Origin: Malacoraja senta
Lineage: Eukaryota
NCBI GenBank assembly: GCA_038087875.1
Contig: CM075989.1
Coordinates: forward strand, 13,084,001 to 13,144,000
DNA: 60,000 nucleotides
Direction of reading: 5' to 3'
Shown here: positions 44,701 to 46,654 of the stretch, one piece after another
How the letters are laid out: each line of letters starts with the position of its first letter
Numbering within the stretch: position 1 is the stretch's first letter
Translations under genes and position numbers: made by a program
Notes under the pieces: generated by a model
Told to the model about the DNA's origin: nothing
The model's database searches: none
What the model saw: the letters and a program-made list of their open reading frames with translations, nothing else

Positions 44701-46654
44701 TGGCAGCTGTTGCAAGATGACCAAGGCTGGGAACTGAATATTTAGGTTATTTGACATTTCGAGGTGGACTGGAAAAGGGTCTGATAACAAAAGGGTGACC
44801 TCGGGTAGTGCTGTGCAATGAAGCGGGCTCACAAGCTCAAGATGTGGGATCAGCCTGGATAAGAAGTCTTTGGTGGGAGTTTTATGCAGGACCACTCCTT
44901 CTTCTTCTTGCGTATGGCGTGCACAGCCTAAAGTTGTAGGTCAACTTGTTCTATTTGATCTTGTTTGTGCACGTCGGGCTGATTGCATTGGTCGAAACAG
45001 GGTGGACCACGTGACGGTTGCAATCTCCCACCCCACAGGACCACTAACAATAGCTGTACTGCAGGACTGAGTGAAAGTTGAGAAAAGTATGTCCTGCAAT
45101 ATCATGGGCGAGTGCTTAAGAGCAGGGGCAAACATTTTACACATCTCGGGAAAGATATGTTCCATTGAGAAGGAGGAAGGTGGACCCCCTGTGGCTGACT
45201 GAGGAAGTTATGGTGGCATCGAAATAAAATCAAAGGCACACAATGTTGGGAAGATCAGAGGTGGGTCATAGGATGGGAGAATATTTAGTCACACACAAAT
45301 GGTGACTAAAAATATATAAAGAGAGAAAAGAAAGATAATGAAAATAATCCAGTGAATAATATAAATAAGGAGAGAAATGGAAGAGATTCTTGTGTTTAAG
45401 AAGGAACTGCAGATGCTGGAAAATCGAAGGTAGACAAAAATGCTGGAGAAACTCAGCGGGTGCAGCAGCATCTATGGAGCGAAGGAAATAGGCAACGTTT
45501 CGGGCCGAAAACCCTTCCTCAGACTGAAGTCAAGGGATATGGGGAGAAGGCAGGAACGGGGTATTGATTGTGGATGATCAGCCATCTGACACGAAGGGCC
45601 GAATGGCCTACTCCTGCACCTATTGTCTATTGTTTATTGTCTATGACTGATTTTATACTAAAAATATCCCAATAATTACCCACTTTGGGAGGAAGAATGA
45701 AAATACAAATTAATATTTAAGTGCAGTGAGACTATTTTAGTGCAAGGGGACCTGGAGTCCTGGTGTATGACATTCGGTAAGATGTAGCAAGTAATTAGGA
45801 AAGTTAATAAAATATTGGCCCTTATTGCAAGGGGCATTGAATGTAGGATTGGGATGTTTTGATGCAACATTACAAAGTGTTGGTGAGGCGACAGTTCTAC
45901 TGTGTAGGGTTTTGGTCAGCATATTTAAAGAACGATGTGCTGGAGGTGGGTAAGGAAGGTTCACAGGACTGTTTCCTGGGAGAAAGGGGTTGACACACCA
46001 AGAATATATGAAAAGGAAGAGAGAGAATAATATAAATGTTGGTACTTTGGGTTGACACACAAAGGAAGGAAGAGCCAGCTGGGTCTGGACTCACTGGAGT
46101 GAGTTCAGGACGTTAAGAGGTGAGGTTCTGAAAGGTAACATTCAGAGGGCAATGACAGCGTGCACCCTCAGTGTTTTCTCTAGGAACTGTATCCAGTTCT
46201 AGGGACATAGTTTCAAAAATAAAAGTTGTCCATTTAACAGTTGAAGAGGATTGTTTTTCCCTTTGATTGCCACGAATCTTTGAAGCCCTCTCCCCCAAAG
46301 AACTATCAAAGCAGGGCCATTGAATAAATACAGGAAAAGACTGACACACATTTAAACTGCAAGGGAGATGGTTTGATAAAGTGGTGTTGAGCCCAAGATT
46401 GGATCAGCCATGATCTTCTGAATGATGGAACAGGCTTGAGAGAAGATGAACAACTCCTGTTCGTGTTTCTTATGTTCGAGATGTAGACCTAACGTGCATC
46501 ATAAACCAAACTAGTGTTAAAGTACCTTTACGTGTTGGTGGAATATGTGTCACTGTATCACAATGAGAGTTCTAACTGTGTGGTTTCTGTTTGCAGGGGA
46601 TTGTGGGGAGGTCCTGCCCCTTTGAGAAAGCTGATGCACCTTGGCACCAAGTAG
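23551..46654 (+). CDS. SQOR: Sulfide:quinone oxidoreductase, mitochondrial; spliced CDS join(23551..23763,27579..27749,28218..28271,30358..30552,31812..32021,34815..34998,37378..37445,42843..43021,46597..46654), 443 aa
   Basis: Nine exons with AG/GT boundaries and compatible phases, 1332 nt in total including TAG. The protein has the FAD-binding GGGTGG motif, [13 protein letters not shown], both active-site Cys motifs (IKCAGAPQK and YTSCPLVT), [15 protein letters not shown] and a C-terminal [14 protein letters not shown], colinear with vertebrate SQOR as I recall it. Confidence 0.97.
25480..27070 (-). mobile_element. Decayed CR1 5' region (ORF1 zinc finger and esterase), interrupted by a MITE, a CR1 tail and a Penelope relic
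   Basis: CTSCQRWE...[12 protein letters not shown] at 26711-26920; [13 protein letters not shown] near 26030-26065. Confidence 0.7.
25726..25906. mobile_element. PIF/Harbinger-type MITE
   Basis: TIR AGG(C/G)CCTGTCCCACT; TAA duplicated on both sides. Confidence 0.8.
27579..27749 (+). CDS. SQOR: SQOR coding exon 2
   Basis: ctccag|[17 protein letters not shown]...TEDGKE; donor gtgaga. Confidence 0.96.
28218..28271 (+). CDS. SQOR: SQOR coding exon 3
   Basis: cttcag|[21 protein letters not shown]; donor gtatgt. Confidence 0.93.
28632..29110 (+). mobile_element. CR1 3' fragment, same young family as 38050-41859
   Basis: Near-identical to about 41345-41855. Confidence 0.9.
30358..30552 (+). CDS. 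SQOR: SQOR coding exon 4 (first catalytic Cys)
   Basis: cttcag|[11 protein letters not shown]...[21 protein letters not shown]; donor gtaggg. Confidence 0.96.
31812..32021 (+). CDS. SQOR: SQOR coding exon 5
   Basis: ttatag|[27 protein letters not shown]...GETKMFQ; donor gtcagt. Confidence 0.96.
33336..34098 (+). mobile_element. Non-autonomous GC-rich retroelement with a 3' hairpin and AATAAA plus (ATGATT)n tail
   Basis: Its head and tail recur at 9441-9535; relatives lie at 48352-49200 and 6181-6366. Confidence 0.65.
34815..34998 (+). CDS. SQOR: SQOR coding exon 6
   Basis: ttcccag|[16 protein letters not shown]...[16 protein letters not shown]; phase-1 donor gtgagt. Confidence 0.96.
35209..35499 (+). 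mobile_element. tRNA-derived V-SINE (HE1-like)
   Basis: A/B boxes (GGTGGCGCAGCTGGTAG, GGTTCGATC), V-domain, CR1-type tail plus (TAAAC)n. Further copies at about 35936-36250, 56383-56660 and 58620-58925 (+), and 43207-43430 and 56825-57225 (-). Confidence 0.85.
37378..37445 (+). CDS. SQOR: SQOR coding exon 7
   Basis: ttacag|CT; (A)[22 protein letters not shown]; donor gtacga. Phases fit both neighbouring exons. Confidence 0.93.
38050..41859 (+). mobile_element. CR1-clade LINE, 5'-truncated: ORF1 SGNH esterase, ORF2 APE endonuclease plus RT with one frameshift near 40200
   Basis: GDSIVR, HIGTND and DGLH in ORF1; NARS, GITETWL, VYRPP, GDFN and SDH in the endonuclease; [23 protein letters not shown] and FADD in the RT; CR1 3' UTR and (tctatg)-like tail. 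Confidence 0.96.
42843..43021 (+). CDS. SQOR: SQOR coding exon 8 (second catalytic Cys)
   Basis: ttacag|[26 protein letters not shown]...LYWHALL; phase-2 donor gtaagg. Confidence 0.96.
43670..44270. repeat. Degenerate tandem repeat / minisatellite
   Basis: Recurring GGGTCTGGTGCAGGGTTTCCCCTGGGTCTGGTGAAC..CACTGTCT..GTCACAG-like units. Confidence 0.7.
44897..45034 (-). mobile_element. 138-bp non-autonomous retroelement with an HDV-like ribozyme head and a (GAA)n tail (possibly Ingi/Vingi-derived)
   Basis: Direct repeat CAGGACCACT at 44887-44896 and 45036-45045; 3' end ...CGCCATACGCAAGAAGAAGAAGG; inserted into an old CR1 fragment. Confidence 0.8.
44981..45034 (-). ncRNA. Minimal HDV/CPEB3-like self-cleaving ribozyme (no P4)
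   Basis: GGGGUGG-GA-GAUUGCA-ACC-GUCACGU-GGU-CCACCCU-GU-UUCGA-CCAA-UGCAAUC. P1 is 7 bp with a G1-U wobble, P2 7 bp, P3 3 bp, L3 7 nt, and J4/2 is C-x-A-A. Confidence 0.85.
45393..45527 (-). mobile_element. Penelope terminal fragment followed by a CR1 3' end (45528-45645)
   Basis: Near-identical to the termini at 20826 and 52679. Confidence 0.85.
46597..46654 (+). CDS. SQOR: SQOR last coding exon
   Basis: ttgcag|G; (K)[18 protein letters not shown] then TAG. Confidence 0.95.

Follow-up and report, generated by a model that had tools for sequence, protein, structure and literature searches.

The stretch analyzed here (hereafter the window) comprises 60,000 nt of Malacoraja senta contig CM075989.1 (positions 13,084,001–13,144,000; element coordinates below are window positions), and carries on its minus strand a 138-nt retroelement that begins with a P4-less ribozyme fold of the hepatitis delta virus (HDV) type. 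Homology of this fold to known HDV-like ribozymes is, in our assessment, close to certain. Comparison with longer repeats of the same genome makes us equally confident in viewing the element as a short, internally deleted, non-autonomous derivative of a long interspersed nuclear element (LINE) that fits the Vingi type and opens with the same ribozyme. The element belongs to a dispersed multicopy family whose consensus is predicted, with good probability, to self-cleave. A sequence-only reading of the same DNA had placed the fold on the minus strand between 45034 and 44981, and every helix and joining strand that it named lies where it was put. The proposed length of 138 bp likewise agrees with the distance from G1 (45034) to 44897, and the 10-bp target-site duplication (TSD), claimed to lie within 1 nt of the cleavage site, is separated from G1 by one T (45035), which is probably non-templated.

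The fold was borne out by an HDV descriptor search. The descriptor, which demands P1, P2, P3, the L3 pattern, G-G/U after P1, and C-N-R-A, matched the window once, at G1, and matched nothing in 1,487 first-order Markov windows (89 Mb, both strands), while across loci from the same genome it returned 39 matches in 299,348 bases, every one a family member. A covariance model trained on 8 ribozymes from other organisms, and on none from the element family, also placed 45034 first in the window (32.4 bits, E 2e-6; runner-up 14.8 bits). The nested double pseudoknot typical of HDV-like ribozymes is present, with a 7-bp P1 opening on a G1-Y pair, a P2, and a 3-bp P3, and a P1.1 is possible, judging solely from the L3 C and the G after P1. 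The J4/2 strand has the catalytic C first, then a tolerant base and two purines, and, as in minimal delta-like ribozymes of the drz-Mtgn type, P4 is absent, with a 5-nt loop in its stead. The U-G reverse wobble of L3 is available to the family and the LINE, and is missing from the window copy, which has G at 45015. Rfam returned no ribozyme match on the window or on the element alone. Minimum free energy folding was ordinary (z 0.42 and −0.14) and is uninformative, because the program cannot form pseudoknots.

The remainder of the element was traced to the LINE through its 3′ end. The last codons and 3′ untranslated region (UTR) of a truncated open reading frame (ORF) end with a Cys/His motif (L049) are identical to the element 3′ end; this piece yielded 493 candidates, and all 30 loci fetched carry element positions 91 onward. 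Walking upstream (72, then 28 candidates) reached a copy at C1:194036880 onward with the head, 5′ UTR, ATG, and apurinic/apyrimidinic endonuclease (APE) domain (L093), and the reverse transcriptase (RT) domain (RVT_1) lies farther downstream, giving a single-ORF APE-RT element of about 3.1 kb by coordinates. Detailed reading covered about 10 of the LINE copies, which number at least 493. One (L101) has a complete ribozyme from G1 at its 5′ end, and another (L096) has one G missing. The element therefore consists of LINE positions 1 to about 77, a 13-nt filler, the last 35 nt of the LINE, and an AAG tail, which corrects the initial proposal of a ribozyme plus about 84 nt of LINE tail, since the ribozyme is the LINE's own 5′ end and only the 35 nt and the AAG tail derive from its 3′ end. 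The filler has at least 3 mismatches to every LINE copy searched, and resembles a local duplication of the 5′ UTR bases just before it. The element thus combines a 5′ part equal to the extreme 5′ end of an autonomous-type LINE, a 3′ part and tail equal to the 3′ end of the same LINE, TSDs, and the absence of an ORF, which places it among the short internally deleted elements (SIDEs) or bipartite non-autonomous LINEs, a class already described.

Relatives of the LINE are APE-RT proteins of about 1,000 aa without RNase H from insects, arachnids, and teleosts. A C-terminal Cys/His motif, which we take to set Ingi/Vingi apart from RTE, is shared by the LINE and 70 of 71 relatives of about 1,000 aa. 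No RNase H match was found behind the RT of the LINE, in 8 relatives, or among the precomputed domains of 120 listed homologues. By architecture, the partner thus fits the Vingi type as defined in the available text of PMC13708176 (a compact single ORF with APE and RT and without RNase H), which gives substance to the Ingi/Vingi partner suspected in the sequence-only reading. An RTE-like fragment within the window (8462–9448) was dropped as a candidate partner, being cut at both ends and without the shared tail. No solved structure resembling the LINE RT piece was matched. Separately, a predicted protein of the eel Synaphobranchus kaupii (P0001) is 68–81% identical to in-frame segments of the LINE (L091, L092, L093), whereas other relatives are only 35–55% identical; this eel identity makes horizontal transfer with teleosts possible.

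The two LINE-derived parts also carry complementary arms. An 8-bp stretch of the 5′ UTR remnant is the reverse complement of one in the 3′ UTR; in the larger subfamily, where a pairing base was acquired, the match grows to 10 bp. Among 25 distinct LINE loci, five (L064/L068, L073, L078, L079, L092) have an inverted head piece at the truncation point, about 80–190 nt long and joined to the 3′ fragment; in L078 the inverted piece extends to G1 and a 13-bp TSD encloses the whole. We infer that these inversions arose by twin priming on a template whose 5′ end, at G1, lay near its 3′ end.

We then evaluated copy number and ends across the 1.94-Gb genome, where the multicopy family anticipated for this element is indeed present. 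A DNA search returned 2,101 candidates (the best 40 at 96–100% identity), and a 21-mer from the 3′ end had 3,182 exact matches, against 0 for its reversed control; no second copy lies within the window. For the first 30 of these matches along contig C1 (L031–L060), a sample unselected for the head, a head was found within 160 nt upstream in 28, the other two being a copy with its head separated by a nested insertion (L041) and a bare 44-nt tail (L034). The TSD, 7–14 bp long in the family, adjoins G1 at offset 0 or +1 in 19 of the 26 copies in which one could be detected, most copies starting at G1; the other 7 have 1–5 extra bases between TSD and G1, and 2 of the 28 headed copies have no TSD. 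Two sampled copies (L055 and L056) are one insertion, duplicated. Loose contig ends from runs of three organisms, one of which may be the window's own source, also pile up at G1 (31, 267, and 308 records), and in two of the three runs at the tail end as well. The family is young, with two subfamilies separated by few sites and a mean divergence from their own consensus of 3.6% (18 copies) and 5.8% (6 copies). The strict descriptor was passed by 13 of the 30 sampled copies which, by extrapolation to the 3,182 matches, would correspond to about 1,400 copies that fit it.

Three further observations concern this family. The duplicated insertion L055/L056 is a second internal-deletion derivative of the same LINE, with another junction and a T run kept, represented among the 30 by this duplicated insertion. 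The base preceding G1 is T in 14 of 27 distinct insertions against a 28% background (p 0.007), mostly as the last base of the TSD, an excess that can be read as a target or joining preference. Finally, one insertion was amplified within a tandem unit of about 12.5 kb at G000:C364 (L008, L009, L020–L027), and most of these copies carry the paired P1 changes G2U and C35G.

To place the fold in a broader context, we scanned metagenome and genome contigs with an alignment of 20 APE homologues, which found 363 related stretches in the former and 3 in the latter; 80 of the 363 and all 3 genome stretches (83 loci) were analyzed. A first metagenome scan with the LINE's own APE alone detected no relative, and none was found in viral contigs. 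A relaxed descriptor matched the relatives 11 times in sense and never in antisense over 181,893 bases. Across 8 relative heads and three heads from the M. senta genome, 11 of 17 pairs were changed on both sides with 98% of cells paired, a count biased upward because the 8 relatives were chosen for fitting the descriptor; none of 500 shuffles reached it and slid partners gave at most 3. A less circular test came from a model built on the 8 relatives, which matched 33 of the 83 loci at E<0.001, all in sense and upstream of APE, 25 of them outside the training set (including some duplicates). The nearest heads (L130, L132) have the same P3 and J4/2 as the element, and where their P1 and P2 depart from it the changes are compensatory. 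All parsed relatives have the catalytic C (demanded by the parse) and keep the L3 U and G, and J1/2 is 2 nt in them too. The region of P4 spans 19–51 nt in all 12 parsed relatives, against 5 nt in the element family, and because of this P4 was most likely lost in the lineage of the element.

The same relatives bear on the CPEB3 ribozyme. The Rfam CPEB3 model (RF00622) matched 6 of 20 loci (best E 5e-5), all below gathering (18–33 bits against 35 bits), and did not match the element or L101; the Faecalibacterium prausnitzii (F. prausnitzii) and HDV models of Rfam matched in 2 loci, likewise below gathering. The CPEB3 matches include two Vingi-type LINE heads from metagenome contigs (L114:200-251 and L109:87-159), and a 14-nt core run of the former equals the RF00622 consensus. 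Some Vingi-type heads reproduce the CPEB3 core nearly to the letter, so the ribozyme known from mammalian CPEB3 may have originated by domestication of a Vingi-type 5′ end. In another Vingi-type family (L102:301-371, L112:831-901), the head is closer to the HDV and F. prausnitzii models than to CPEB3. Pieces of Vingi-type LINEs also occur in two contigs titled as bacterial metagenome-assembled genomes (L182, L183), probably through binning contamination.

Within the family, variation at the 54 ribozyme positions is restricted: besides CpG decay, only three changes recur in several copies, at position 8 (J1/2), position 32 (a U-A/U-G swap in P1), and position 45 (directly behind the catalytic C). 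All three are tolerant positions. At position 45, G is found in 17, A in 5, and U in 4 of 27 copies; the window copy has C, as do 6 of 14 parsed heads with the window copy included. According to the accessible text of PMC6326823, this base is flipped out in HDV and tolerant to change. Of 27 sampled copies, 25 have the catalytic C, and 26 have U as the first L3 base, like the LINE, the remaining one having a deletion. Compared with the LINE head (L101), the window copy differs within the ribozyme only by U20G and U45C, with A56G just behind. Since U20 forms the L3 reverse wobble and is described as crucial for catalysis (PMC6326823, in the portion available), the window copy is probably impaired, and would be expected to cut poorly or not at all; the suspicion in the sequence-only reading that this G might impair the copy was thus well placed, the change being private and probably harmful. 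Being antisense, it would in any case be unable to cut the SQOR pre-mRNA.

Taken together, these patterns lead us to favor, with reasonable though not high confidence, a cycle of read-through transcription, self-cleavage at G1, and trans-mobilization by the LINE protein through the shared 3′ end. A sense copy within a host transcript would be transcribed by read-through, and the 54-nt ribozyme would cut 5′ of G1, leaving a uniform 5′ end that may also be protected by the pseudoknot. The APE-RT protein of the LINE would then bind the shared 3′ end in trans and insert the RNA by target-primed reverse transcription. The 8–10-bp UTR helix probably keeps both ends together, and this may have favored both the founding deletion and the 5′ inversions of the LINE; the window copy would be an antisense passenger in the SQOR intron. 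Ribozymes of comparable length that lack P4 can be active, for instance the 56-nt theta ribozyme described in the available text of the preprint to PMC10879173.

Several observations weigh against this cycle. None of the 17 pairs showed two-sided covariation inside the family (an alignment of 25 rows, with 6 headed copies out of 28 excluded for indels or as duplicate), so that covariation lends no separate support to the P4-less form and the P1/P2 covariation which the sequence-only reading had proposed to look for did not appear among the copies; the cross-family count, for its part, carries the selection bias given above. The 2-nt J1/2 is close to the 0–1 nt spacers that gave no or little activity in drz-Agam-2-1, according to the text seen of PMC4908430. 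Of 7 LINE 5′ ends read, 5 start 5–12 nt inside G1. The LINE copies read are frameshifted, the fullest has a disrupted 3′ end, and none has an intact ORF, so the driver LINE may have died out or escaped notice. No pile-up of read starts was seen at the element in one raw RNA run (poly(A)-selected, from another organism), in which depth over the element was about 450–590 with a 1.4–2.2-fold mate-strand skew and strandedness unrecorded; neither result of this run was used as evidence.

Uniform 5′ ends would be produced equally well by a promoter start site, and the strongest rival, which we regard as improbable but worth weighing, is that the head is an internal RNA polymerase (Pol) II promoter starting at G1, like Pr77 of L1Tc/NARTc, with the ribozyme secondary or vestigial after the loss of P4. 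The L1Tc head, the counterpart of this one, serves as both promoter and ribozyme in the accounts available, which makes the label "promoterless" of the sequence-only reading only tentative, and the missing covariation inside the family fits the promoter explanation; against it, no catalytic position has been lost, and the sites hit by the three subfamily changes are tolerant ones. Cap-copying adds a G, and no excess of extra G was seen before G1 (3 extras ending in G, 35 with a TSD, 46 distinct insertions), in a test that is blurred by G1 itself. A purely passive pseudoknot, serving as a stable 5′ shield or as the point where RT runs off, with a 5′ exonuclease trimming host RNA to G1 and the chemistry dispensable, seems less probable again. 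The efficiency of R2-based insertion is governed by how stably the 5′ module folds (PMC11331408, from the part available), and a 2-nt J1/2 and an absent P4 could slow catalysis. A mere shield is, however, at odds with the catalytic C in nearly all sampled copies and throughout the parsed relatives (where the parse required it), and with the retained L3 U and G. The weakest contender, Pol III transcription from G1 of a short interspersed nuclear element (SINE) whose filler made a B-box-like motif and whose founding deletion removed the T4 run, is very unlikely: the element does lack a T4 run where the LINE has one just past the junction, and a B-box-like 9-mer with one mismatch (positions about 75–83) and loose A-box-like matches near the 5′ end are present, but such matches are expected by chance at one mismatch (an estimated 0.3 or so per element), Rfam matched nothing in the element, and the head is LINE 5′ UTR and not a small-RNA gene. 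No tRNA was found either, and the only sequences resembling A/B boxes are these loose matches.

The cycle proposed here, self-cleavage followed by mobilization in trans, would resemble the working of NARTc, SIDER, and R2 SIDEs (PMC6765202 and PMC7761336, as far as available). NARTc, RIME, and SIDER of the L1Tc/ingi clade are likewise short Ingi-group derivatives that keep a 5′ HDV-like ribozyme at +1, with in vitro cleavage shown for several (PMC4035085, in the text available); those elements, however, belong to protists, their ribozymes have P4, and their partner LINE has RNase H, whereas the present element is a 138-nt, P4-less form in a vertebrate genome whose partner has none. In Drosophila, R2 SIDEs likewise arose by internal deletion keeping the 5′ ribozyme and the 3′ protein-binding end (PMC3414825, in part), but R2 inserts specifically into 28S rDNA and does so with a restriction-like endonuclease, unlike the dispersed family with APE-type TSDs described here. 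Bipartite non-autonomous LINEs such as Vingi-1_EE derivatives and RTE-N2_Lch also retain only LINE 5′ and 3′ ends, and the available text of Kojima 2018 (PMC5786205) names Vingi as one of four clades producing them, without including it among the six ribozyme-bearing clades listed there; the difference is that the Vingi-type head is here a ribozyme fold.

Among ribozymes, the closest in form are drz-Mtgn and theta, likewise P4-less, about 55 nt long, and with the same core. In the accessible part of Kienbeck 2024 (PMC10879173), nearly 99% of P4-less ribozymes are in Caudoviricetes phages, often beside tRNAs, and none came from the eukaryotic genomes searched. The present ribozyme instead heads a retroelement and descends from P4-bearing relatives, and because of this descent the loss of P4 was probably independent of the phage forms. 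Theta ribozymes are defined by a phage genome and cleavage at a tRNA 3′ end, whereas this copy lies in a vertebrate intron without a tRNA. The L3 and the GU after P1 of the family equal the Rfam consensus of the CPEB3 ribozyme (RF00622), which differs in being single-copy, intronic, mammal-specific, and equipped with P4.

An HDV-like ribozyme in a vertebrate is not new per se, as cases in lamprey and lancelet are recorded (PMC8256844, in the part available). Full-text literature searches, PMC10919898 included, returned no description of a Vingi ribozyme, this element family, or a derivation of the CPEB3 ribozyme from a retrotransposon in the text they cover, and no report of a P4-less ribozyme in thousands of vertebrate copies; Vingi, Ingi, shark, and SINE are all absent from the main text, as available, of a 2026 ribozyme survey preprint. 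LINE derivatives shortened by deletion and headed by an HDV ribozyme are already known (NARTc, R2 SIDEs), and the element family may already be in Repbase or Dfam. The "Ingi" set of Ruminski 2011 may comprise elements of Vingi type as well. We consider it rather unlikely that the full reading holds, namely that the LINEs of Vingi type start as a clade with an HDV-like ribozyme, that in the present lineage an active P4-less form exists in >1,000 intact copies, that the 138 nt represent a natural minimal cis-template (ribozyme, paired UTR arms, 35-nt 3′ end, and AAG tail), and that CPEB3 was domesticated from such a head; with the CPEB3 origin set aside, the remainder is moderately probable.

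Should the ribozyme prove active, the P4-less variety of the HDV-like type, which reports have placed almost exclusively in gut phages, would be present in a vertebrate nuclear genome; its origin by P4 loss can be traced here, and many natural variants are at hand. With some 13 of 30 copies fitting the strict descriptor, sense copies could cut host pre-mRNAs at many loci, which predicts an antisense bias in introns. Vingi would also join those clades of LINEs that begin with a ribozyme, a point of relevance to gene-writing systems in which Vingi-1_Acar retains its native 5′ UTR (PMC13708176, from the text available): the clade is now used for RNA-only gene insertion, and the 138 nt would, if the reading is true, be a natural minimal cis-template. 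Because Vingi-type heads resemble the CPEB3 core, ideas on where the CPEB3 ribozyme came from can be put to the test.

Positions of the element, its parts, and the host intron are listed below. The antisense placement in the last SQOR intron, as originally proposed, is supported by the flanking exons: the penultimate (42843–43021) matches human SQOR (E 4e-25), and the last starts at 46597.

Features of the element and its host intron, in window positions.
Feature	Position	Strand	Basis
TSD, 5′ side copy, 10 bp	45036..45045		sequence
Single extra T separating TSD from G1	45035	-	sequence
P4-less HDV-like ribozyme, 54 nt; predicted cleavage 5′ of G1 (45034)	44981..45034	-	descriptor, covariance model, alignment to LINE
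P1, 7 bp, G1-U wobble	45034-45028 with 45005-44999	-	sequence
J1/2, 2 nt, between P1 and P2		-	sequence
P2	45025-45019 with 44987-44981	-	sequence
P3, 3 bp	45018-45016 with 45008-45006	-	sequence
L3 loop	45009..45015	-	first base 45015 is G in the window copy
GU after P1	44998-44997	-	sequence
5-nt loop in the place of P4	44992..44996	-	parsed heads; 19-51 nt in 12 relatives
J4/2, candidate general-acid C at 44991	44988..44991	-	sequence
Remaining LINE 5′ UTR, with 5′ arm (44973-44966) of 8-bp inverted repeat	44958..44980	-	LINE comparison
13-nt filler at deletion junction	44945..44957	-	LINE comparison
LINE 3′ end: last four codons of the ORF, stop (44930-44928), 3′ UTR	44910..44944	-	LINE comparison
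3′ arm of inverted repeat, within LINE-derived 3′ UTR	44925-44918	-	LINE comparison
(AAG)n microsatellite tail, common to the LINE	44897..44909	-	sequence
TSD, 3′ side copy	44887..44896		sequence
Last SQOR intron, element antisense	43022..46596	+	exon comparison

Beyond the element itself, 3.1 kb around it is repeated 74.7 kb downstream at 99.8% identity (L001, G000:C13:13202063-13205201), either because the SQOR region was recently duplicated in tandem or because a haplotype was left uncollapsed. Elsewhere in the window, RT and endonuclease fragments with long palindromic termini, which we take to be Penelope-like, occur at 11694–14035, 21065–22875, and 49949–50323, and their termini account for spurious Rfam miRNA matches. 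A nearly intact LINE ORF2 in two frames (38467–41770), presumably CR1-like, lies within a SQOR intron and is preceded by an ORF at 37973–38662 that we assume to be esterase-like.

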